Below are positions 1 to 25,392 of a stretch of 64,000 nucleotides of DNA, piece by piece (positions within the stretch are counted from its first letter, which is position 1; the number at the start of each line of letters is the position of its first letter). The translations under genes were made by a program, and so were the position numbers. The stretch is from Blastocystis sp. Blastoise. Taxonomy: Eukaryota; Protista; Bigyra: Opalinata. The notes under the pieces are model-generated. The model did no database searches, had not been told where the DNA came from, and saw nothing but the letters and a program-made list of their open reading frames with translations. Location of the stretch: NCBI GenBank assembly GCA_039096225.1, contig JBBPEB010000013.1:806001-870000 (forward strand), written 5' to 3'.

Positions 1-1621
1 AGAATCAAATGGAGGTAAATATACTAATATGCCTACTATTCAATATACTTCACATTTTAATCCTAATAGTGGTGTTTCTACATTAGAATTTTATGATTTT
101 GATGTTGCACATAGAGAAGCAGAAAGAAATTATCAAATGTTAAATAGAGAACAAAAAGAAATATTTGATAGAATTATGGTATCTGTTAATAATACTCAAC
201 CTCATAATAATAATATGTTCTTTATTGATGGTCCTGGTGGAACTGGAAAAACATTCTTATATAATACTTTGATCAAGATGATTCGTACAAGAGAAAAACC
301 TGTATTAGCTGTTGCATTCACAGGAATAGCAGCTACTTTATTATCAGGAGGAAGTACTTCTCATTCTGTATTTGGATTACCACTTGATCTAAATGAAATG
401 TCTATTTCACATATAACAAGAAGTAGTGCAAAAGCAAATGATTTAAGAAAATGTGCTATTATTATTTGGGATGAAGCACCTATGGCTTCTATTTATGCTT
501 TAGAAGTTCTTGATAATTTATTACATGATTTATTTAGTTCAATAGATTCTGAAGATCCATGTCTTCAATATCCTTTTGTTGGTAAAACTATTGTTTTAGG
601 TGGAGATTTTAGACAATGTTTACCAGTAGTTAAAAATGGAAATGAATCATCTACTGTTGGTGTATGTTTGAAAAGATTTAAATATTGGAATAATTTTATA
701 CAATGTCATTTAGTTCAGAATATGAGAGCAGATAGAGATGCTTTAGATTTTAAAGAATGGTTAATGAAAGTAGGAAATGGTGAACGATTAAATAATGAAT
801 CTGATTTGAATGATAATATTGTAGAAATACCTTCACAATGTATAAGTACAGAAAATTTATATAAAGAGATATGGGAGAATATACTTCATAATAGAAATAT
901 TTTATCAGAACAACATAGAAAAGATTTATCTGAGAATTGTATTTTATGTTGTACGAATGAAGATACTTTTGATATAAATGAGAAAGTATTAGATTTAATA
1001 CCTTCTTCAGAATCAGAAAAAATATATTATAGTTTTGATACTTTAGAAGATGAAATAGTTAATGATTCTGAAAGAGCTGCTTATTCTCCTGAATTTCTTA
1101 ATACTCTTCTTCCTCAAGGATTTCCTCCTCATAAATTAAGATTAAGAAAAGGCTGTATTATTATGTTATTGAGAAATCTTAATATAAAGAAGGGTTTATG
1201 TAATGGAACAAGATTAGTTGTTCTTGAAACATTAAATAATGTTATTCGTGCTCAATTATTAAATAAGCCAGATAATTTATTACCTGGTGAAGATATTGTA
1301 TTTATTCCAAGAATCAGTTTAATTACTTCAGATGATTCACTTCCTACTAAGATGAGAAGAAAACAATTTCCTGTTCGATTAGCTTTTGCTATGACTATTA
1401 ATAAATCACAAGGTCAAACATTTAAAAATGTTGGATTATATTTAAAGAGACCTGTATTTAGTCATGGTCAATTATATGTTGCTTTTAGTAGAGTTCGTTC
1501 TTTTAATGGTTTACATATTTATGCTGAAAATTGTAATAACAATAATCAAGGACATCTTAGTAAAGACTATCCTAATAAGGTATTTACGACTAATTGCATT
1601 TTTGATGGAGTTTTAAATTAG
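1..1621 (+). CDS. Helitron RepHel protein, C-terminal Pif1/SF1B helicase domain (5'-truncated by window edge)
   Basis: Motifs DGPGGTGKT, IIWDEAPM, GGDFRQCLPV, LCNGTRL, QFPVRLAFAMTINKSQGQT, HGQLYVAFSRV. Differs from the C-terminus of the 46094-50911 ORF at 3 of 530 aa. Confidence 0.95.
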   Translation, partial: ESNGGKYTNMPTIQYTSHFNPNSGVSTLEFYDFDVAHREAERNYQMLNREQKEIFDRIMVSVNNTQPHNNNMFFIDGPGGTGKTFLYNTLIKMIRTREKPVLAVAFTGIAATLLSGGSTSHSVFGLPLDLNEMSISHITRSSAKANDLRKCAIIIWDEAPMASIYALEVLDNLLHDLFSSIDSEDPCLQYPFVGKTIVLGGDFRQCLPVVKNGNESSTVGVCLKRFKYWNNFIQCHLVQNMRADRDALDFKEWLMKVGNGERLNNESDLNDNIVEIPSQCISTENLYKEIWENILHNRNILSEQHRKDLSENCILCCTNEDTFDINEKVLDLIPSSESEKIYYSFDTLEDEIVNDSERAAYSPEFLNTLLPQGFPPHKLRLRKGCIIMLLRNLNIKKGLCNGTRLVVLETLNNVIRAQLLNKPDNLLPGEDIVFIPRISLITSDDSLPTKMRRKQFPVRLAFAMTINKSQGQTFKNVGLYLKRPVFSHGQLYVAFSRVRSFNGLHIYAENCNNNNQGHLSKDYPNKVFTTNCIFDGVLN

Positions 1622-1854
1622 TTATTGTTTTATTTGTTTTATTTGTTTTTTGATTTCTTTTATATTTGTTATTGTCTGTTAATATATTTGTTTTTATTTA
1701 TTATTTTTCTCTTTTCAATTTTTATTTGTTGTCTTAAAAGTTAAATATAGAATATTCTATTGTTTTGTTAAAACTTAAAAACCAAAAACTAAAAATAGAT
1801 ATTTTAAAATAAAACTCAAGCGTAGGCCTGCGTAGGCAGGCCGTGAAACGCTTG
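1..1854 (+). mobile_element. Autonomous Helitron copy 1 (3' part; 5' part lies outside the window)
   Basis: Pif1-type helicase ORF, then subterminal hairpin GGCCTGC-gtag-GCAGGCC (1825-1842) and CTTG|T at 1851-1855. Homology with copy 2 (45857 onward, minus strand) stops at this point. Confidence 0.92.
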
Positions 1855-1887
1855 TTTATATTAAAAAACAAAATAGAATAAATGAGA

Positions 1888-2318
1888 TCTATTTAGATAG
1901 AATATATGCAGGATACAATAAAACTATATATGATAAATCAAATAAAAATTATATATAAGCATTATGATTTAGTCACTAATACAAAAAATTATAAAATTAT
2001 TTCTTTTATATAAAACTAATAAAAAAATATGTATTAATAAATAAACATTCCAGAAAGAATAATTTAAGCAGAATGACTTGAAATTATAAATAAAATTATT
2101 GTTTATTTTCATATAATAATATTTTTCTTAGATAAATATAATTTATATTATAGAAACTATTATGAGATGTTTCATTAATGAAACTATTATAAACTATAAA
2201 CTACTTCAAAAAGCATTTTTATATATCTATATGATACAATATATTTAAAAATATTTTTGTATAAATTATAAAGCTCTAAAGGTTACGAAGCATCGGCGAA
2301 GCCGATGCCACCCGCTAG
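1888..2318 (+). mobile_element. Putative short non-autonomous Helitron of a second family
   Basis: Canonical 3' end: hairpin GCATCGGC-gaa-GCCGATGC (2290-2308), 6 nt, then CTAG (2315-2318) followed by T. Candidate 5' end A|TCTATTTAGATAG at 1887/1888 is tentative. Confidence 0.6.
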
Positions 2319-2334
2319 TTTTCCTTAAAATTCT

Positions 2335-2930
2335 TAACATTTCTTATATCTTCTTCTATGTTCTTTATCATTATACTTCTTCTTCTTTTTATATCTTCTT
2401 CGTTTTTATTCTTTATTTTTTTTCTTTTTTTTCCTTTATCTTTCTATATCTTCTTTCATCTTCTTTCATCTTCTTTCAGCTACTTTCATCTAATTTCATC
2501 TAATTTCATCTTCTTTCAGCTACTTTCAGCTACTTTCAGCTACTTTCTATATCTTATATCTTATATCTTATATGTTTTTATATCTTCTTCTTTATTCTTC
2601 CTTCTTATGTCATCTTCTTTTATTTTATATACACTTTTTTCCTTCTTATATCATCTTCCTTCTTCTTATATCTTCTTATATGTTCTTTTTATATGTTCTT
2701 TATATCTTCTTTATATCTTCTTTATTCTTCTTACTTCTTCCTTCTTCTTACTTCTTTTTATATCCTCTTTATTCTTCTTTATTCTTATCTCGTCTTCTTA
2801 TATCTTCTTACTTCTTCTTATATCTTCTTACTTCTTCTTATATCTTCTTACTTCTTCTTATATCTTCTTACTTCTTCTTACTTCTTCTTACTTCTTCTTA
2901 CTTCTTCTTTTTTCTTTTACATCTTCCTAT
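2335..2930. repeat. Pyrimidine-rich minisatellite (9-10 nt units TATATCTTCT/TACTTCTTCT, also TTTCAGCTAC/TTTCATCTTC)
   Basis: Visible tandem units, most homogeneous at 2795-2910. They account for the F/L/S/Y-rich spurious ORFs here. Confidence 0.85.
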
Positions 2931-3296
2931 ATATTCATATTATAATGTTTATCTGGTTTCTACAACTTCTCTATTACCTCCTTATCTTTATATAATATCC
3001 TTCATTCAATCACAATGTACTTTATTGTTTACTATGATTATATATTCATTGATAAATTGCCTCTATTTAGTTTATAATATACTTTTTTAAATTTTAATCA
3101 CTATTGTTTTAATTAGAATTTTTACTGTTATGTGTTTATTCTATCTATCTTTCTAGTTACTATTCTCTCTATTTATTTTTCTATCTATATTTGTCTATAA
3201 AAATATATAACGATATATATATAGTATAGATAATATATAGTAGGTACATATATATCCCTAATAATATAATTATTATTTTCTTTACATTCATATATC

Positions 3297-3361
3297 CCTT
3301 AAGCTTATAATGGTAAGTTACTCTATTTATGTGTAAACAGGTTCAAACCCTGTCTTAAGGA
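3297..3361 (+). pseudogene. tRNA-like element (pseudo-tRNA or Pol III promoter cassette)
   Basis: 7-bp acceptor-like stem CCTTAAG/CTTAAGG, D-like arm CTTA-TAATGG-TAAG, perfect T-arm ACAGG-TTCAAAC-CCTGT. No canonical anticodon arm and only ~65 nt long. Confidence 0.45.
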
Positions 3362-5150
3362 TTATACATATATTTTTTCTTCATATTCTATTTTTATATA
3401 GTTCTACCTATTCTTATTAATCTCATATTCCTTATCAATATCTTCAAAAATGATTTTCCAAAGATAATTGTTTCTTTTGAGAATATATATTAAATGATTA
3501 TTATTACAAGCAACTAAAATACTGTAAGTACTTATATAATGAACTCTTCTAATTACGATCAATATAATTAGCATTTAATTACCAAACATTATATTTTATT
3601 TACTACTTATTGATTTAAATGATTAATATTTAGATATTATAAGTTATTTAATAGTTGGTTTAGATGTTTTAAATAAAATAAGTTAACGAATTACAATTAT
3701 TTTAAATATTCTCAACTATTCTCTTATAAATACATTCTAGATTGGCTTTTACAGAAATCTATTTTCACAAAAAGTACATATTAAATGCTTTGAGCAAAAG
3801 GTTTCTAAGAATTACAATTATAAAACCTAAATAACTACACAATCTAATCATAGTTGTAAATAAAACTACATTTATCACATATATAAATGGTTTTTACAAG
3901 AATTTAACATAGTTTATGAAATTAATTAATTACTTTTTTTATAATTTTTAAATAATATCATTGAGAACCACTGTAGAAACTACTTTTAAATCTAATTTAG
4001 CTATTTTTTGTTTTTTCATATTAAGGAATGTTAAAAGATGATGATGATCAAATAATTAAAATAGCTCAAATAATCTCCAACTAAGAACACATTGTCTGTG
4101 AACTGTAAAATGATAATTATATATCAATTTAAAATGATTTATTAGTTTTAGAATAAAAGCAGCAAAAAATGTTTGTTTTGTAATGTAAACTTATTTTTGT
4201 ATTGATAGTTCATAATAAAATACTAGAAAAAATGTTTTTAAATATTTTATGCATTAATTAACACTCTTTACATTTAAATAAATCCAACAAACTATTTTTT
4301 GAAGAACATCAAAACAAAAAAACATTTTATTTCTAATTGTTTTACATAACTACTTTCAAATATTAGTTAAAAGTACTTTTTAAGTGCTTTTAAATACAGC
4401 AAACTTTATTTAAGAGTTGAATTCACTTTGTAGAAATGTTTGTAATCACTTTTATTCTGTCTTATACACTTTTTATCTATTGTATTCCAATTAAATTATT
4501 GAAAGAAGCAAGAGTCAATGATAATAATAATGATAGTCTAACATTTCTCTTTGGATTCATTCTATAAATAATTCTATTCTTATTTTCTTTACAAATTCTC
4601 TTTTCACTGAATATTTATAACTAAAAAATATATATAATAGCCCGATAAGATTGTCCTACTTATTTTGAAGTTTTTGTAATATCGTTATTTCTCATCACAT
4701 ATCACCATCATGAATCAAACAACACACACCACTAAACACCTATAATTATTACTTACTCTTAATTAGTTGAATTAATTAAGAAACACTGAATTGATGCAAA
4801 TTCTTATTTATTTTTTCTATTAATGATTACCACTCAAGTCTAGTTGCACTGACAATACTTTATTACGCTATTATTGATCATGAAAGTACTTGACAAAATA
4901 ATAAACAAATTTCAAATTATAGAGAAAAGATCAAATATTTTCATGAATTCAAAGCTTTTTCTCTTATTTATTTATAACCATTCATTTTATATAAAACATA
5001 GAGTCTTATACTAAAAATAAATCTCGTTTATTCTTGTTTATTTTATTAATATACCCCAGATCTTTTGAATTCCTATCATACCCGTATATAGTCATTTTAT
5101 CTACATTTCTTTCACATATATTATTAATTATTGTGAATCATCTATTAACT

Positions 5151-5868
5151 ATGGGTTCTAGTAATAGTTGACGGTATTGGCTTGTTTCTGCTTAATATGT
5201 ATATAATACTCGTTTGGAGTTAAAGGTATGCTTTATTTTGTTAAATTCTATTCTTTTCTTTAGATTGCGTTGTCTCTTATAATGGTTGGCTTTCTCCGTC
5301 TTCTATATCGTTGGGTGACAGTATGGTTATATATTTATTTATATTCTATTTTTTTATAGATTGTAGGAATAGGATCCGTTTGACTCAGAAAGAAGTTATA
5401 TAAAATGGTATATATCTATCTATATTACTTGTCGTTATCCTATTTTAACTAACCCCACTTATATTTATATAGCTTTTATTGTATATATATATTTTTTTTA
5501 TTTATTATTATTTATTACTGTTATTATTATTATTTATTATTATTAAAGGATCTAATCATTATTATATATAGATCAGCATTACAGGCAAGCGTATAGGTTC
5601 CTTATTATTCATTTTGGATTCTTGCAATGGTAAATATTATTCTATTTTATACTATTAATTATCTAACATTTTAATTTATATAGGCTTATTATGAGTACAA
5701 GGTGTCTATGGTATTGCTGTTCGGCCTCAGTTTTATAACGAAAATGTATATATATATTTTTATCATTTAAATTTTAATTTCAATTAATTATTGTTCTGTA
5801 TTATTATAATTATCTTTATATAGGTTACAATGCTTAGAGAGTGTGATATAAGTGTTGATTGGTTCCAT
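5151..5868 (+). ncRNA. Candidate spliced structured non-coding RNA (7 exons, ~353 nt), family unassigned
   Basis: Exons 5151-5225, 5264-5320, 5360-5407, 5473-5480, 5572-5629, 5684-5745, 5824-5868 bounded by GT-AG introns. All three frames of the spliced product contain stops. Nested inter-exon helices with G-U pairs. Confidence 0.45.
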
Positions 5869-6518
5869 TTAAATGTTTATTATTATTATTATTTGTCTAT
5901 TATATGTTTATTATATGTTTTATATTATATATATGTGTTTGTTTTGTTATATGAACGTTTATTAAGCTACCAATGAATAAAATAACCCTGAAAAATGACT
6001 GAAAAGTGAACGCTAAAAATTCTTACAATTAGACTTTTGGCGGACAAATATTTCGGTAAAACTCTAGGCATTTTAGGGTGTGTCATCCTTATTCACTGTT
6101 TTCCCTGTCGTCAAAATCACGAAAACCTATTCCCATATTTTCACGAAACAATTATTGGGGAAACCTCACTAAAACTTCAAACTACCTTTTCACTAAAAAA
6201 AAAAAACGACGGTAGTGATGGAGTTAATGTACAAATTTATGATATTTAAAGTAACTGTAATATGTTGTTATGATGAATGAAAGATATTTTTATAATAGAT
6301 AAAAAAAAATATTTTTTATAATGAATAGAAGATCAGTTATTATAATTCAATATTTTAAAAAATCATTAATAGATTTATATTTAATAAAACAAAAAAAAAG
6401 TATAATATTAAACATAGACAAACAACAATAAATGTATAAAATAAACAATGAAAAACAAATGAATAGAATTATAGATATGAATAATAAACATGAAATAGAA
6501 AAGCATAAATAACATATA

Positions 6519-6876
6519 TTATTCTTGAACATCAAACGTAGGTTGTTCCTTATGTTTTTCATGTCTTTGTTTATGACCCATTTTCATAATCACCTTAGGA
6601 ACATGGTGATGACTATATATATATAAATATATAATTAATTAGGATTGATAATAATATAATATATATGTATATATAATAAAATGAATACTTAGCAATTCTT
6701 CTAATTTCAGGTTGAGCAGCATATCGTTGCTTCAACTTATTATAATAATCAAGTTTCTGTTGCTGTCTTGGAAGAGGCTTCTCTATATATATTATAAATA
6801 TATTATATGTAGTATTTATCGAATTATATAGGAATATCTTAAAAGAAGAATAAATATAATAATAATAATAAACATC

Positions 6877-6914
<38 letters not shown>

Positions 6915-7895
6915 CATCATAATAATAATAATAATAATAATATATATATATATATACCAAGCATTTCACTTGCTCTTGCTTTCCATATACGGAGATTGGT
7001 ATCATCCGATCCGGAAATGATGAACTTACTATCTGCACTATAATTAGCAGTATATACACGTTGCATTCTCTTACCATGATATCTATATATATAGATATAT
7101 ATATAAGAAATTATATTACTATTTTAAAACATATAATTATTTAAGTTATATATTTATATTGAAATAATAAACTAAAAGATATAAATATATATATATATAT
7201 ATATAATAAATAGATAAACATATATATAGCATAAATAGATAAGCATACACATCTCGACTATGAATATTCCCGCGGTTCCAGAGACGAACAGTACGATCAT
7301 AACTTCCAGATACAAATTCTCTGCCTGTACTACTATATGCAACGGACATAACGGCACCCACGTGACCCATGTGTGTCACGAGGGGTTTCTCTAAATTACG
7401 CATATCAAATGTATATAAGTTATAATCTTCATTAGCCTATATTTATATATATAGATAATTGTATATGATTTATAGAATAATATGATATATATATAATATG
7501 AATCCTTAAAACCTTTGAAGAATTGATAGTAAATAATATAGTATCATAAAGAATATAGAGAATAAAATAGATTTAAAATAATAGCAATTAAGATATAATA
7601 AATATTATTATTATTATATATATATATACAACAGTAAAGTTCATAGGTTCTCTTGGATTCCAAGAAATAGCATTAGAGCACATACGAAGTGTAACTTTAC
7701 GAAGTGTAGATGAGGTACGAACCTAAAGAGTAATATGAACTTAGAAATAGATATAGGTATCATATAGATATAGATTTAAAATGAGAAGAAATGAAAAGGA
7801 TAAAAAAAAAGTAATTGAATATAATAAAAACGAAAGACTAAAAATTATGATTATTAAAAAAAAAGTAATAAATAATTATAACTATAATTCTATTA

Positions 7896-7962
<67 letters not shown>

Positions 7963-8909
7963 TCAAATAAGGATATAGAACGATCATTTGAGCATGCCGC
8001 AAGAACAGAGGATTCTCCAGGATTAAATTGAATAGATCTGAAATGTTCATGGCCAAAAGTAAATGTGTGCATAGGTTGACTCTTATGTACAGACCATAAT
8101 TGTATTACAGAAGAACAAGTAGCAAATACATCATCTTCCCAACTGTGATCTATACCACTATATATATATATAAGTAAATATCATAAGATAATAGTTAAAC
8201 TATAAATATATATATATATATATACTAGAAAGCTTCTTTTCCTGTCCAAACATTAAGTGGATCAGGTTGATATTCAGGGGCTTCTATACCCTATATACAT
8301 ATAATCATAATCATAATTATAATAATCATAATCATAATTATAATCATAATCATAATAATAATAATAATCATAATAATAATAATCATAATCATAATCATCA
8401 TAAAAATAACATAATAATATAATAATACCATCATCTAATTATTATATAAAACTCTTTATAAACATATATATATATACTCCACCAGCATCCATATTTAATA
8501 GATATTGTTTAATAGTACCATCATCACTACAACTTATAAAGCTAGTTCCTGTTTTATCTACTGTAATACCACGAACAAACTTCTTGTGAGCATATACACT
8601 CCAAACAGTCTTTTGAGTAGGTAAATCCCATATACGTACTTCACCATCACAAGCACCTGATAAGAAACAAACAAGACTCTTCGGACTAGTAGCAGTACAC
8701 CAAACACCATCGGAATGACCATCTAAAGCACCAACAAATGGTTTTGCAAATATTTTATCAAGTTTTACAGCATTAAGTGCTCTTTTATATTCGCGAGCTC
8801 TTTCGAAGGGATGATGAACAGGATTTAGATTATGATGAACTTTATCAACATCTCCTTTTCTTTCCTTTAAGTAATCAGATTCAGATCTTGAAATAACTTT
8901 GATTTTCAT
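6519..8909 (-). CDS. DCAF13: DDB1- and CUL4-associated factor 13 / Sof1 (WD40 SSU processome protein), multi-exon
   Basis: N-terminus MKIKVISRS...HPFERAREYKRALNAVKLDKIFAKPF; exons with GREFVSGSYDRTVRLW, YHGKRMQRV...SGSDDTNLRIWKA; Sof1 tail PEIRRIA..HHVPK; stop at 6519-6521. Confidence 0.93.
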
Positions 8910-9173
8910 GATTCAGACAAAAAATGAGATAGAAAAGTATATAAGAAAACTAGAAAACTCTTTTCAAAAAACAACTGGTTTCATAATTTTATTCACGATT
9001 ATATATTTTTTTTTATAAATAATTTTTCGACCATAAAATGAATATTGTTGTGAGAAATCAATTAGAAACGATTCTTTGAATTCAAAGATAATTCAACTAA
9101 CAAAACTAATTTCAATATAGATAAGAAAACATTTAAAAAAATAAGATTACTAATAAGAACAGAAAGAAAATGT

Positions 9174-10084
9174 TTAGTTTTCAGCATACATAGACTCAAT
9201 AACATCTCTGAAGTTTTTGTGAACAATATCTCTCTTTAATTTTAAGGTAGCAGTTAATTCATCATTACCAAGAGATAAATCACGATCAAGAATACACCAT
9301 TTTCTGATATTTTGAGCACGAGAGACAGCGATTTCGTTGTAACGACTGATAATACCATCAATATAAGCTTTGAACTTAGGACAATTTTGAGCTTCTTGTA
9401 CAGTAGTAGCAGTAGATCCAATTAAAGCAGCTTCACGAAGACTAGCAGGAGCTAATTTATCAGTAGGTTCACCATTAAGAGGATTAGCATTAGTCTTTAA
9501 ACTAATTAAGCAAGATAAATATTTCTTCTTATCACCTACAACAACAACATTAGCGAAACAATTAGATAATTCCATGATTTTAGTTTCAATAAGTACAGGA
9601 GGAATATTTTCACCACCAGCAGTAACAATAAGTTCCTTAATACGTCCAGTAACATAGAAGAATCCATCATTATCCTTTCTACCCATATCTCCTGTATGAA
9701 GCCAACCTTCATCATCAATAGTTTGAAGTGTTTCAGTCTCCATCTTTAAGTAACCCATCATAACAAATCTACCTTTATATTGTATTTCATGAGTATTAGG
9801 ATCAATACGACCTTCAGTACCAGGCATAGGGCGACCACAAGAACGAAGTTTCCAGGTCTGATTAATATATCCATTAGCAAATACAGGAGCAGTACCTTCA
9901 GATTGACCTAAAACATCATATAAAGGAAGATCTAAAGAAGCAAAGAATAATTGAGTTTCTTCAGTAACAGGAGCAGCAGCAACAATAATGAAACGAATAC
10001 TAGATATATTTATATTTATATATTATATATATATATATTTATAATTATATTTATATATATATCATTAATTAATATATTGAGAAG

Positions 10085-10127
<43 letters not shown>

Positions 10128-10925
10128 TTAATTAATATATTGAGAAGGCAAAAATAAATCTATATATATAAATATATAAATATACGCTCCAAAACCTAAA
10201 CTTTCTTTAATTTTATCAAAAAGTATTTTCTTGGCAATACCATAGCCGAAAGGTTCAACATAAGGTTTACCATACTGTCTTCTTAAACAACTTTCTGTAC
10301 CTTTACCACGAGCCCAATTAATAAGACACTTCTTAACACACTATATATATAATAGAAATAATATATAGTTGAGTATTATAAAAAGAAACATGTCGAAACA
10401 AAGAAATAAAAAAAATATGGACAGTATATAATAATAAAAATAGTAATTATATATAAAATAATTTATAGGATAATAAAGTAAAATACAAATAGTTTAAAAT
10501 CAAAAACAAAAAAGAGAATACAAGTATAATGATATCCTTAATATATATATATATATATATATACAGAAGCATGAGAGAAGACATCCTTCAGTTTTTCCAT
10601 CATCTTTTCATAGACTCTGGGAACAGCTACAAGGACAGTGGGTCTAGCTTTCTTCATAGTATCGGTAAGAGTACCCTTAAGAGCATCAGGACGAGTCATA
10701 TACACACAAACACGAGTATAAGCAGGAATCATAGCATCCACATATTGAGCAGCAATATGATTCAAGGGAAGGAAAGATACCTATATATATTATTATATAT
10801 TAACTATTATTATATATATTATATAGAATATATTATTATATTTATTATATTGATTATTATACTTTAAAACAACAAAATAATAATAATACTAATATTAATA
10901 TTAATAATATATCATAAAAGCATTT

Positions 10926-10992
<67 letters not shown>

Positions 10993-11083
10993 AAACGATC
11001 TCCATCTTGGAATCCTATTCTAGGAATAATGCCTCTAGCGTTGAATGTACAACCATCATGAGAACACATAACACCCTTAGGGT

Positions 11084-11161
<78 letters not shown>

Positions 11162-12114
11162 CTTATTCTATTTATAAAGCAAACATATTCAAAATATATA
11201 TATTCAAAATATATATATTCAAAATAAATATATTCAAAATAAAATACAATAAATAATTAATAAATATTATTTATTAGAATAAAAAAACACTTATAAATAA
11301 ATATATATAATATACGGTAGTACCAGATGTATAAATAAGTGTAGCACATTGATTAGGTTTAACAGCATTATAACGTTCAAGGAATTGTTCTTCTTCAACA
11401 TTCTTACCACATTCTAAGAATTCATCCCATTTATAAACCTTAGCAAACTATATATATATATTTTAAATAATAAAGAAAAAAATATTGAATTAAAAAATAT
11501 ACTTCATCATCAGGAGCAGTCTTGAAACCATCTTCAGGCCAATAGCTATATATATATATATCATTTAAAATATATATATAAAAAATAAGCATTTTATTTA
11601 AAAAAAAATAAAATAAATATATTTTATTTAAATACACAACGATAGCTTTAAGATGAGGAAGATTAGCACGAATAGATAAGATTTTATCTAATTGTTTGCC
11701 TCCTTGACAGAGAATAACACGAGATTCAGAATGTTGTAATACATATTCACAAGCACTAGGACCATTAGTAGAATAAATACCAGTAGTAACGGCACCACAA
11801 AGCCAAGATCCATGTAAACTAAAGAACCATTCAACAGAGTTGTAACCAATCATAGCGACAGGTTCAAAAGACTTGACACCAATAGAAATTAAAGATTTGG
11901 CAAATTGTTTAGAGATATCATAATATTGTTTATAAGTATATTGAACTCCAGTAGAAGTAACGAGAGCAGGATAATCAGCCCATTTTTTGGCTTGTTCAGT
12001 GAATAATTCACCAATAGTTTTGGGTTCAGGATCGAAATCACTTTCAGGAGAACGAACAATATTAACTGTATCATTTAAATTAATACATCTAAAACCATCA
12101 GGTAATTGACTCAT
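9174..12114 (-). CDS. Long-chain fatty-acid--CoA ligase, bubblegum (ACSBG)-like, multi-exon
   Basis: AMP-binding motif LIYTSGTT|[57 protein letters not shown]. Confidence 0.92.
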
Positions 12115-13590
12115 GTTAAAATTTGAACAACAATAAATTTAAAACAAATAAATAAAATGTTTTACTAAAGAATCACAAAATCTTAAGAAATGTCTTACTT
12201 GAATATGTCAATTTCTATTGGTAATCTTATGTCTTTTGTTAATTCAATTTTGTCTTTGTTTTGAGCATCTAGTGAAATCCGGTTATTTCTTCATTCTCTC
12301 TGATAAACACGGATTTATTCGCGATTATACGAAATTGAATAAGAATGCTGTAAGAATACAAAAGAGATGACGACATACCCCTGTTATCAGTATTTCATTG
12401 GTGAATAATCTAACTTATAAAAAGACAATGAAACTATTAAAACGATTCAATTTATTTTCAATTTTTGACATTATAAACAGCATATTGTATTAATTTATAT
12501 GCTGATTATAATATAAAAATAAATTTAGACTATATTTAATAAGAAAAGGGAAATTTGTTTCTTGTTTAAGGTAATTCTAGTTGATTTTTGAAGAATAGTT
12601 ATTATAAATGAAAGGTATTACTCCAACTCAAAATGTCATTGCAGAAAATATATGGTACATAGAGAGAGAAATATTTTGAAAGAAATAACTTTGAAGCAAA
12701 ACTATCTTTAAACATTAATATATATGAGTTTCTTCTTAGAAATTTCTGTCGTATTTAAAAATAGTATGTTTAAATCAGTCTATAATATAAAATGAAAAGG
12801 ATTATTCATCTTCTAGGATTATATGCACAAATATATTCAATTTTTTTGATAGCAACAGACTGCTTTACATTGTTACATTGAATTTATCAGGTATTCAGAT
12901 AGACTGATTGATCACCAATAGGTCAATACTCGTTAAGGAAGTATATAAATAGTTTAAAATCATTGTATATATTAATATAATAGCAACTCAAAAATTATTG
13001 TTGTTTTTAACTGTATGTAAGAGAAACCAATTGGGAACATGACCACATCTAAGCATAAAAATAAAATAAAATGCATCTCTATAGTTTAGAAAACCCTATA
13101 TAGTTACTTGAACTAATGTGTGTGTTTGTAATTGAGATCTAAAAATGGAATACTTTGTAACAAAACACTTCTACATGACCCACAAATAGGTTGGAAAAAT
13201 ATCTCTCTTTAAAACAATATTTATTTTCTAAAAAATCATACGAATAAAGATTTAAAAAATATATATGAAATGGTGAAAAAATGTTTTTATTGTGTAAAGT
13301 TCTAATATTCTTTAAAAATTATTTATATAATATCAGTTGTGTTTATTTTTGTTATACATTCGTATTATTGTAATATATAAACGATTTAATCAGTAATGCT
13401 TTGTAGTTATCCAATTTAATTATTAGTTGTATAGAATATTTTTTATAAAAACATTAGGAGTGTATAATCCATATTATCCAACACATTAAATTTGTTTTAT
13501 ACTATTGTTTTAATCATTAATTATACTACTGTTTCTTTAGTTTATAACTATTTAAGACTCATATACATAACAATAAAAATAGAAATACAA

Positions 13591-13674
13591 GCCAGTTTGT
13601 CCGAGTGGTCCAAGGAGGGGGACTTAAGATCCCTTATGCGAACGCATGCGTGGGTTCAAACCCCACAGCTGGCA
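13591..13674 (+). tRNA. tRNA-Leu(TAA)
   Basis: Acceptor GCCAGTT/AGCTGGC+A, D-loop CCGAGTGGTCCAAGG, anticodon loop CT-TAA-GA, long variable arm ATGCG-AA-CGCAT, T-arm GTGGG-TTCAAAC-CCCAC, downstream T-run terminator. Confidence 0.95.
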
Positions 13675-21749: not shown

Positions 21750-24301
21750 TTAATCTGTTTTATAGGTACCTTGTAAATCAAGCATACACTTTTCAGAATC
21801 GCAGAATGAGATTTCAGAAGGATACATATTAAGTTCTGTACCATTATTTTTATGTTCTTCAATACCAGATCCGAAAGATTTTTTACTATTAGAAGATTTT
21901 AATTTATTAGAACGTATTTGGAATGGATTTAATTTCTTTTCATTATTATTAAGAACTGATTCTACAGCTATAGACATAGCTTTAGGAGAAGAAGGAGTAG
22001 TAAGAGTTTCTTCTTCTTCAGTCCAAGAAATAGGTAAAAGATTTTTACTCATTTCAATATATTGTTCTTCTGTAATTTCTTGATAAGGAATTTGTGGATA
22101 ACAAGATAAATCACATTTAGGTAAACACGAAATACCTTTTAATTGATATTGGAAATAATCTAAACATTTTTCAACCATATTTGATTCTGTTTTAGGATCA
22201 AATGTGACAGTACAACTAACTTGATTATCAGCCCAATATTTCTGTAAGAAAGCAGCTAAAGAGAATTGTTCAAAAATCGATACTTCATCAATAACACGAA
22301 CATTTTTACCCGCACAAACAGGGAATTCTACAACAACTAATTGATTTTCTTGTCCAACAGCAGGTTCTATATGATATCCGGCATGTTCTAAAGCAGGTAA
22401 CATATCACTATCTTTAGGGAAACGTACACGACGTATATAAAAACGACCTAATGGATAATGCATACCAGGAGTAGCACCAGCTAATAAAGATACAGTACCT
22501 GAAGGTTTAATAGAAGTAGTTTTAATAGATCGAGGTACACATAACCATTCACTATATACATCATCCCAATGTTGAACTGTATTATATCCTTCATCCATCC
22601 ATTCACGTAAATCTTCTAAACTATGTTCAGATAAGAATTGAGCTACACCAGAAACAGAACAACCTATTCTACGATTTCTTAACATAACTCTATTAGTTTC
22701 AGGCCAATGAGTCATTCCTAAAGTAACTGTCTTTGCATATAAATAAGCAAATTTCAAAGTACGTTTATATTCTTGTAAAGAATTATGTCTAGCAGGAAAT
22801 GTTTCGACTAAACAACATAATTCATAAGATTCTAAAGATTGTTCTAAACATGGATTTCCACCTTTAACTCTATATATATATATATATGTTAGAAACATGT
22901 AGTATTATATTTTATAAAGATAAAAAATATAATATTGTGAACATTCTAATAATATAGCATTACTCAAGCTCTAATACAACTTATAATGAAGTAGATAGGG
23001 TAGTTATGTAATGCATTAGTAAATATTATTTATAATCATAGCATATTAATATATATATATATATGTATTATATATATATACCTTTTATCTTTATAATCTT
23101 TAGGATCAGCCATTCTACCATAAGCTCTCATATTCTCTAACCAACATAAACCAGGTTCACCATTTATACATATACGACTAGCTATTTGATGATAATTCAT
23201 ACCTAAACGAGCAAAAATACTATTATTAGAAGTCCAGCCATAGGAAGAACGATGAGGATTTATCTCATAATTCTATATATATGTTATTATAGTATATATT
23301 TTTAATTTAATTGTTATTAAAAAAAAAAGAGAGAGAGAAAAAAAAACACTTTATATAACTACCTTTAAATCTAAGAAAGCATCATCATTTTCTTCTCCAA
23401 AAGCGATTTCAGCACAACGAATATTACCAACCCCAATAACACATTTACCAATATAATTAAATAAATCAACAATTAAAGTAGAAGATAACTTTTTACCAAT
23501 CTATATAAATTGAATACATAAATAATACATATACTTAATAGAATAATAAATAAATATATATACATCTTGTGTTAATAATTTTACTATTTGTTCATGAAGA
23601 TCAATAAGTGGTTTTGGACCTGAAGATTTACCGCCATATGTCTTTAAATCTTCACCAGCAGTACGAATATGTGAATAATCAAAAGTAATTCCAGGAAGAC
23701 GTTGTCCATTTTCACCAAAATAAGATAAAATCAGATCACCAACTGATTTAACCCATCCTTCACGGCTATCTTCAATTTCATATACAACACGTTCTAAAGA
23801 AGGATCAGGACCAACAATAGTTACTTTATTTGCTCCTTTAGTATCAAAACCAACACCTACACCCAGCATAGTAGCATCCATTAAGAACTCAAATGGCTTT
23901 GATAAATCAACATCAATATTCTCTGTAGACACAAAAGCACAATTATTTAAAGCAGCAGCTAAATTCTTTTGATGAATAATAGGTGTTCCCATACAATATA
24001 AACCACGACCAGGAGGAAGAAACTTCATATTAAAGATCATATCGTACATTTCTTCAGCACTTCGTTCACCTTGTTCATCATTCCAACCTAAATGATATTG
24101 CTCAATGTGATTTTTCTGAATAGAATAGGTGCCTTCAACAACACGACGAACAGTTTCAAACCAATCTTCTTTGTGTCCATTGATGGTTCTAGAATAAGTT
24201 CTTCTATAAATAGTTTCACCTAATCCATTAAATCCGAAAGGAGCTTTCTTATGTCTATATTGCTCAACAAAATCATCATTCAAACTAAACGAATATTCCA
24301 T
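21750..24301 (-). CDS. nrdJ: Class II (adenosylcobalamin-dependent) monomeric ribonucleoside-triphosphate reductase, 4 exons
   Basis: PPGRGL, ALNNCAF, GVGVGFD, TSNNS, GEPG, NPCLEQSLESYELCCLVE, IKPSGTVSLLAG, WADNQVSCT and C-terminal redox pair FCDSEKC; three GT-AG introns. Confidence 0.93.
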
Positions 24302-25392
24302 TTTTCCTATAGACTACTTAGTATGTATATAGACCAGAGATATACTATTATTTCGAAAAAAGATGATTTTTCAATTTCTTCAAATATAATAAAAAATAAC
24401 TTATCAATCTGTTGTTCATTCTATTTTCCCAGACAAAAATTCCCGCTTCTTTTCGAGTCGGTGGGTTTTTTGTGGAAGTCTTTCGGGTTTCTAACCAATC
24501 ATTTCGTTCCAGAAAGTTCTCAAAACTTCTTCATTTGGAAAGGTCTTTATTATGCCTCCAAAATATTTTAAAATTACCCACCAAACAATAGAATTGGATC
24601 TTTTTCAGATTTTTTCAGACACTTTTTCTTTTTTTGGTGGTGGTTTGACTATATTATGTATCTTTTCTTATGAAAAACATATTCAGAGATCTATGTGGGA
24701 TAGGATAATGCATGGAGTGAATTAAGAGGTGATTCGTAGCGATTTAAAATAATTTGTGGAATTATTTGGAAATAAAAATCTCTATTACTATCTTATAAAT
24801 TAGTTTCTAAAAGTATACATTAATCAAACAAATAACAATGATACTCAAAGACTAATTAAAGTAATTTATTTTGAATTGTATGAAAAAATACAAAGAAAAT
24901 CATATTATGTTGTATTATTTGTTTTACTTAGACTCTTGTAGAGTACTGTAAGTTAGTATATGAGATTATGAATTTCAGAACATCATTTTTTCCAACTAGT
25001 TTGTTTTTCAAGTTATATTTGTGTTGTATATACTTATTATTGGTCAATTTTTTCTAGAACAAGTTAATAGAAATGATAGTTGAGATATCGGGATTCTATG
25101 TATATGCATATATTATATGCTTTTTAAAAATATATATAGAACAACTTTTTGGTTGAAAGATTATATATGCAAATAATAAAAGCTATATATATTATTATTT
25201 CAACTAAAGTCAAATATATAAAAAAAAATAGAATGAGAAACTGATTTCAAGAAAAAAAAGATATAAATTGAATGAATTGATAATAAAAAAAATCAGAAAA
25301 ATGGAAAATAATCAGGAGAATGTATTTAGGATCTACACTATTATAAAAAGAAGAAATGAATAATGAGTTGATTACTTTATAGTAAGGATAAT

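Follow-up and report, generated by a model that had tools for sequence, protein, structure and literature searches.

In some yeasts, spliceosomal introns interrupt genes for snRNAs and for the U3 snoRNA. snoRNA host genes of the GAS5/UHG type give rise to multi-exon, polyadenylated transcripts without an ORF, and their exons are not the coding product. To our knowledge, RNAs of the RNase MRP/P, SRP, telomerase, snRNA and snoRNA classes do not usually occur as poly(A) transcripts with several introns. The spliced polyadenylated lncRNAs of eukaryotes form an operational class, to which RNAs are assigned that are transcribed, longer than 200 nt and devoid of coding potential. In the literature that we retrieved, so far as its available text goes, lncRNAs of Blastocystis itself are not described; the papers deal with host lncRNAs or are reviews.

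The locus reported here (position 5168 to 5879 and beyond) lies in a window of 64,000 nucleotides, by which we mean the whole stretch of DNA that was analysed. It is a real gene whose transcript is read from the + strand and consists of six exons, the five introns between them being fully spliced. An initial annotation had proposed it as a candidate intron-containing structured RNA of the size of RNase MRP/P, SRP or telomerase RNA. What looked like a hidden structural RNA becomes a plain spliced non-coding transcript once the real junctions and shuffle controls are applied.

Among the described systems, the lncRNAs of the operational class are the most similar. The two RNA contigs of the locus (339 and 315 nt) exceed 200 nt, GT-AG introns have been removed from them, and the RNA is found in poly(A) RNA and has neither a 100-codon ORF nor coding statistics nor a notable fold. 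It differs from typical lncRNAs in being very short and intron-dense (five introns in 339 nt, exons of 48-62 nt) and in having an expressed, diverged second copy. With the snoRNA host genes the locus shares a multi-exon, ORF-less, polyadenylated transcript, but its introns (38-164 nt) contain no C/D box and gave no Rfam match, and thus carry no intronic snoRNA. In addition, it is the exons of the locus, not the introns, that are GC-rich and common to the second copy. The yeast snRNA and U3 genes are comparable in having spliceosomal introns within a gene for an RNA product, but the spliced RNA of the locus is without Sm site or C/D boxes, and its genomic sequence gave no Rfam match. RNase MRP/P and SRP RNA are similar in size (~300-400 nt), and the GAAAG string noted earlier is indeed present in exon 3; the RNA of the locus differs from them in that it is spliced five times, occurs in poly(A) RNA and has a folding energy at the level of shuffled sequences.

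These comparisons are based on the following searches. With Rfam at gathering thresholds, the whole window (as genomic, intron-containing DNA) yielded only a tRNA. At E <= 10, there were 0 matches in 5050-6050 on both strands, again in genomic DNA, where single exons can be matched in local mode. Accordingly, no RNase MRP or RNase P covariance model matched the genomic sequence, and the diagnostic motifs of these RNAs had also not been matched in the initial annotation. The C box (RUGAUGA) and the D box (CUGA) are absent from the spliced RNA and from the introns, and the Sm site RAU(3-6)GR is absent from the spliced RNA. A telomerase RNA would carry a template with complementarity to ~1.5 telomere repeats; the spliced RNA contains no permutation of CCCTAA, but the repeat assumed here, TTAGGG, may not be that of this organism. 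A resemblance to U3 or U12 RNA, suggested by short similar strings, was rejected in view of the missing C/D boxes, Sm site and Rfam match.

The window has a G+C content of 23% and contains eukaryotic genes with short AT-rich introns (Table 1). A 156-residue exon of the DCAF13 gene shows 100% identity to a protein listed by NCBI under the name Blastocystis sp. Blastoise; the next matches are from other stramenopiles (60-65%). Tortoise isolates of Blastocystis are described, in the available text of a preprint, as having 21-23% G+C, longer introns and canonical stop codons (PMC10690189), and composition and features of the window fit this description. The organism is an AT-rich, intron-rich Blastocystis from the tortoise gut.

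Table 1. Coordinates of the non-coding RNA locus and of other features in the window
Feature	Position	Strand	Remarks
Helitron Rep/Hel ORF, 3' part	2-1621	+	
Upstream stretch, no RNA support	5151-5167	+	ends in AG (5166-5167); TTAAC at 5145, 16 nt before the AG
Exon 1, 58 nt supported	5168-5225	+	X1 and X2 contigs, 0 other letters
Intron 1, 38 nt	5226-5263	+	GTATGC..TTTAG; X1 and X2 joint
Exon 2, 57 nt	5264-5320	+	RNA contigs
Intron 2, 39 nt	5321-5359	+	GTATGG..TATAG; RNA contigs
Exon 3, 48 nt	5360-5407	+	RNA contigs
Intron 3, 164 nt	5408-5571	+	donor GTATAT; 5407 joined to 5572 in X1 and X2
Exon 4, 58 nt	5572-5629	+	RNA contigs
Intron 4, 54 nt	5630-5683	+	GTAAAT..TATAG; CTAAC at 5663; RNA contigs
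Exon 5, 62 nt	5684-5745	+	one-letter difference from window in both runs
Intron 5, 78 nt	5746-5823	+	GTATAT..TATAG; RNA contigs
Exon 6	5824-5879+	+	aligned to 5865; X1 contig extends 14 letters into masked repeat
DCAF13/Sof1 gene	~6520-8912	-	tail-to-tail with the ncRNA locus
AMP-binding acyl-CoA synthetase	9174-12138	-	
tRNA-Leu (anticodon TAA), 84 nt	13591-13674	+	
B12-dependent (class II) ribonucleotide reductase	21753-24313	-	RNR_Alpha and RNR-II insertion domains
Helitron ORF, uninterrupted, 1629 codons	46097-50983	-	Helitron_like_N, PIF1 and Pif1_2B

RNA contigs from four public runs (X1-X4) were aligned to 4700-7390. X1 and X2 stem from two different studies, and X2 is a poly(A)-selected metatranscriptome RNA-Seq run; X3 and X4 gave short AT-rich pieces or nothing and are uninformative for the locus. 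One contig of X1 (339 nt) and one of X2 (315 nt) match the locus, and both skip the identical five GT..AG stretches. The junction check proposed in the initial annotation thus confirms, with data from two studies, that the locus is transcribed and contains introns, but there are five of these and not six. The difference is due to an 8-nt micro-exon that had been suggested at 5473-5480, which is skipped in both runs. Exon 2 had been taken to end at 5321, one letter beyond its actual end. All five donors resemble GTATAT, the donor at the end of an exon of the nearby DCAF13 gene. In four of the six exon pieces, no letter differs from the window; the one-letter difference between RNA and DNA in exon 5 is seen in both runs and could be a strain, assembly or editing difference. 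The contig set had been filtered against conserved-gene contigs and depth in it cannot rank genes, the DCAF13 exons at 6520-7390 being almost bare.

Within intron 3, the stretch 5445-5480 contains AACTAAC, which resembles a branch site well, as well as an AG at 5471-5472; with the GTATAT at 5481, this makes a complete but unused acceptor/donor pair on either side of the suggested micro-exon. Such a pair may mark recursive or alternative splicing below the detection level of contigs.

Both contigs begin exactly at 5168, and depth is 0 upstream of this position. RNA support for a transcript from 5151, as drawn originally, is therefore missing for the 17 letters which hold the ATG and the 5' strand of a proposed terminal helix. 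Position 5168 is either the transcription start or a break of the assembly graph at an acceptor-like AG. At the other end, a masked repeat (5866-5903) cuts the alignment of exon 6. The 3' end of the RNA lies beyond 5879, and no contig covers the sequence from 5960 on.

The X1 run contains a second contig of 340 nt and similar depth, which matches 5371-5393 (22/23) and 5830-5865 (32/36). The two shared blocks are separated by 138 letters in this contig and by 140 in the RNA of the locus, and the second contig ends within ~3 nt of the same relative places. It is a diverged copy of the same layout, and the pair points to a small family. The motif CTYAGARAG, which was picked post hoc, is found at 5384-5392 and 5833-5841, once in each shared block, and occurs only four times in the window on both strands. 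The search for further relatives was negative within its scope: blastn of the window with the exons and the spliced sequence gave low-complexity matches only, so that no paralogue was found there, and the genome collections of prokaryotes contained no relative of the locus. In metagenomes, the best of 28 DCAF13 loci was 60% identical, which is too distant for a comparison of synteny. We also considered the locus as cargo of a Helitron and rejected this, as the Helitron copy upstream ends at ~1863, 3.3 kb short of the locus, and nothing corresponding to the locus is found at the second Helitron copy in the window.

The identical first base of the two contigs also bears on the possibility that they represent the 3' part of a longer transcript, with 5168 as a splice acceptor (AG 5166-5167, TTAAC 5145) and a coding exon upstream. 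A start at the same base after an AG is what would be seen at a branch of the assembly graph. However, there is no RNA cover on 4700-5167, and 1864-5150 contains no convincing coding ORF. All three frames that enter at 5168 stop within exon 1, so the five introns would fall in a 3' UTR. The second contig, moreover, begins no more than ~3 nt from the corresponding position, in keeping with a transcription start. We regard this longer transcript as most improbable.

Read in its three frames (~112 codons each), the spliced sequence of 339 nt runs into 6, 4 and 9 stops; the longest closed ATG ORF has 30 codons and the longest stop-to-stop stretch 40 codons. The earlier statement that there is no ORF and that each frame has at least three stops thus holds for the real transcript as well, and the actual splice pattern, which might have revealed a protein, has neither an ORF nor coding statistics. 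The locus has a phase-by-base chi-square of 4.8 (p = 0.56 by permutation), while 15 equally long coding chunks from the window have values of 22-61. Third positions have 13% G+C in coding sequence, and no exon of the locus has a phase below 23%. The codon-usage score of the best frame is -8.9 bits vs +95 +/- 32 for real coding chunks, with a small training set of 8 ORFs, two of them from Helitrons. When the frame was left free for each exon and stops were ignored, the locus reached a sum of 46, while coding pieces scored 110 +/- 22 (5th percentile 76) and GC-matched non-coding pieces 37 +/- 17; 30% of the latter reach 46.

This non-coding level of the free-frame score argues against a recently frameshifted pseudogene. 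It also weighs on the related explanation that the locus is a decayed gene for a small membrane protein, which is still transcribed and spliced. The gene-like exon/intron layout with five efficient introns would agree with such an origin, as would the U-rich sense strand with hydrophobic stretches in several frames and the frame that has just 4 stops, three of which are TGA. However, 4 stops are not significantly fewer than the ~7 expected from an estimate based on base composition, and third positions as AT-rich as those in the coding sequence of this genome are not seen in any exon. Decay old enough to bring the free-frame codon score to that of non-coding DNA should have eroded the G+C content of the exons, too, and there is no parent gene in the window. 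We thus consider a decayed gene very improbable. The remaining stop in the frame with 3 TGA is a TAA. A changed genetic code or read-through of TGA is not needed to account for it, as the neighbouring genes have long exons that are open under the standard code (DCAF13 ends in TAA), and it was rejected, since the frame lacks coding statistics.

We conclude that the RNA is most likely non-coding, and that Blastocystis thus has a genuine non-coding gene with several introns; micropeptides could still be made from its short ATG ORFs of 8, 20, 23 and 30 codons, three of which are hydrophobic. Of these, the ORF of 30 codons is the lead candidate; it begins at 5627 (context GCAatgG), extends over exons 4-6 and would encode a single-pass hydrophobic peptide. 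The RNA is mRNA-like in being spliced and present in poly(A) RNA, and the 20-, 23- and 30-codon ORFs have a purine at -3 and hydrophobic peptides. Exons 5 and 6 score +14.3 and +8.3 in their own best phases (stops ignored), and these correspond to the frame of the 30-codon ORF. However, the score amounts to ~0.4 bit per codon, well under the coding mean, and three other frames with an AUG precede the ORF on the RNA. The hydrophobic appearance of several frames is a property of the U-rich strand, which yields hydrophobic residues in every frame. The second copy is also at variance with a conserved peptide: the shared block continues 15 nt beyond the stop of the ORF (5849-5851), to 5865, and the 2-nt difference in block spacing argues against a shared reading frame. 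A micropeptide mRNA is thus an unlikely explanation of the locus.

To assess the proposed structure, the spliced RNA was compared with 300 dinucleotide shuffles. Its minimum free energy (MFE) is -68.7 kcal/mol vs -73.2 +/- 4.4 kcal/mol for the shuffles. The resulting z-score of +1.0 is near zero, an outcome that the initial annotation itself had named as speaking against its model. The splice model assumed there gives z = +1.4, and six local windows of 100 nt range from -1.1 to +1.4. Neither the whole RNA nor the local windows thus have excess folding energy relative to shuffles, and the stable conserved multi-helix core of RNase MRP/P or SRP RNA, for which an energy below that of shuffles served as a proxy, is not indicated.

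The nested helices that had been described fare no better when their frequency is considered. Complementary strings of 11, 9 and 6 bp are present as claimed, but they have no support above chance or in the ensemble. A contiguous helix of at least 11 bp (G-U allowed) occurs in 144/150 dinucleotide shuffles (96%), the chance of a pair being ~0.43 in this U/G-rich sequence. The ensemble pair probability of the three helices is <= 3e-5, and a structure forced to contain them has -61.9 kcal/mol, 6.8 worse than the MFE. Two further helices do not fit the mature RNA: AATG|CT with AGCATT relies on the micro-exon that is skipped, and the terminal helix has its 5' strand upstream of the RNA-supported transcript. 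The proposed helices are a chance product of the U/G-rich sequence, and nested helices of 9-11 bp are to be expected by chance in such a U/G-rich sequence of an AT-rich genome.

These results have to be weighed against the view that the locus encodes a new or unrecognised structured ncRNA, or a very divergent RNase MRP/P, SRP or telomerase RNA, snRNA or snoRNA hidden by its introns. The length of ~340 nt or more, the elevated G+C content of the exons, the second copy of equal length with its conserved blocks and the yeast precedents for spliceosomal introns in snRNA and U3 genes would all be compatible with it. However, its folding is indistinguishable from that of shuffles in the whole RNA and in local windows, its helices are at chance level, the genomic region gave no Rfam match, the spliced RNA lacks C/D boxes, an Sm site and a CCCTAA-type template, and the classes in question are generally not multi-intron poly(A) transcripts. 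We therefore regard a structured RNA as very unlikely, and it is likely that no RNase MRP/P, SRP or telomerase RNA is concealed in the locus. Of the original proposal, the spliced RNA without an ORF or coding signature, which is present in a poly(A) library and probably a Pol II transcript, is retained; a fold of the MRP/P, SRP or telomerase kind is not.

The elevated G+C content of the exons, on the other hand, is real: exons have 35% G+C, introns 14% and flanks 19-24%. Its value as proof of constraint is weakened because GC islands of this size are frequent in the untranscribed parts of this DNA. Of the 57-nt windows in the whole stretch, 20% reach 30% G+C or more, and the untranscribed 500 nt upstream contain three such islands. 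The contrast may just reflect that AT-rich stretches are spliced out, and it is weak evidence of constraint. Together with the second copy of equal length, it gives a hint of selection on the RNA and of a more specific function than that of an ordinary lncRNA.

Taken together, we consider it probable that the RNA of the locus is an ordinary small spliced lncRNA, which neither encodes a conventional protein nor acts through a compact fold, be it as a scaffold or as a catalyst. In this model, transcription of the + strand, presumably by Pol II, would start at ~5168, and removal of the five short AT-rich GT-AG introns would yield an RNA of at least 339 nt that enters the poly(A)-selected fraction. 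The RNA itself would be the end product. Any function might be carried by short blocks, like those two that the second copy has kept, or lie in the act of transcription or splicing.

A more specific but less probable variant is put forward tentatively on the basis of the two sequences: the 339-nt and 340-nt RNAs may form a two-copy family of intron-dense, unstructured ncRNAs that is specific to (tortoise) Blastocystis, the CUYAGARAG blocks of which would bind a protein or RNA. If so, no functional lncRNA family would have been reported before from this widespread gut protist. The diverged second copy provides a handle on whether such RNAs are under selection. Should the family prove conserved among tortoise isolates, it would offer a first tractable case of regulation at the RNA level in Blastocystis; if it is not conserved, the locus illustrates that a fortuitous transcript easily loses its AT-rich stretches as introns.

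Downstream of the aligned part of exon 6, the element TGTTTGTT is present at 5936-5943 on the + strand, as noted in the initial annotation. In human-associated Blastocystis, the available text of PMC4159000 describes TGTTTGTT as an element located 4 nt downstream of poly(A) sites, and also stop codons that are made by polyadenylation. The copy at 5936-5943 is a candidate poly(A) element of the locus. In the window, TGTTTGTT occurs 8 times vs 3.7 +/- 2.2 expected, and 5/100 shuffles reach 8, so that it is only marginally over-represented; one copy sits in a coding exon. According to the available text of PMC10690189, the downstream poly(A) element is not enriched in tortoise isolates. A stop made by polyadenylation at this site was rejected, as these isolates are described there as keeping canonical stops, without enrichment of the motif.

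Between the locus and DCAF13, a patch of ~34% G+C (5990-6240) ends in a run of 12 A (~6196-6207). It occurs once in the window, no RNA contig lies on it, and it may represent a retroposed element or a decayed one. Further upstream, 2319-3090 consists of ~770 bases of C/T-rich low-complexity sequence, in which several frames are open and the GC skew goes down to -0.96; this fits the excess of low-complexity DNA reported, in the text available to us, for the tortoise isolates. The class II ribonucleotide reductase at 21753-24313 is a eukaryotic gene that may have been acquired by transfer from bacteria. The Helitron at the start of the window (1-1863, +), which runs off its first base, is 98% identical to the other copy over 1869 bases. 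The two are alike over 1-1863 and 47714-45848, have a common end at 1863 and 45848, respectively, and are unlike beyond it, and the element looks recently active.
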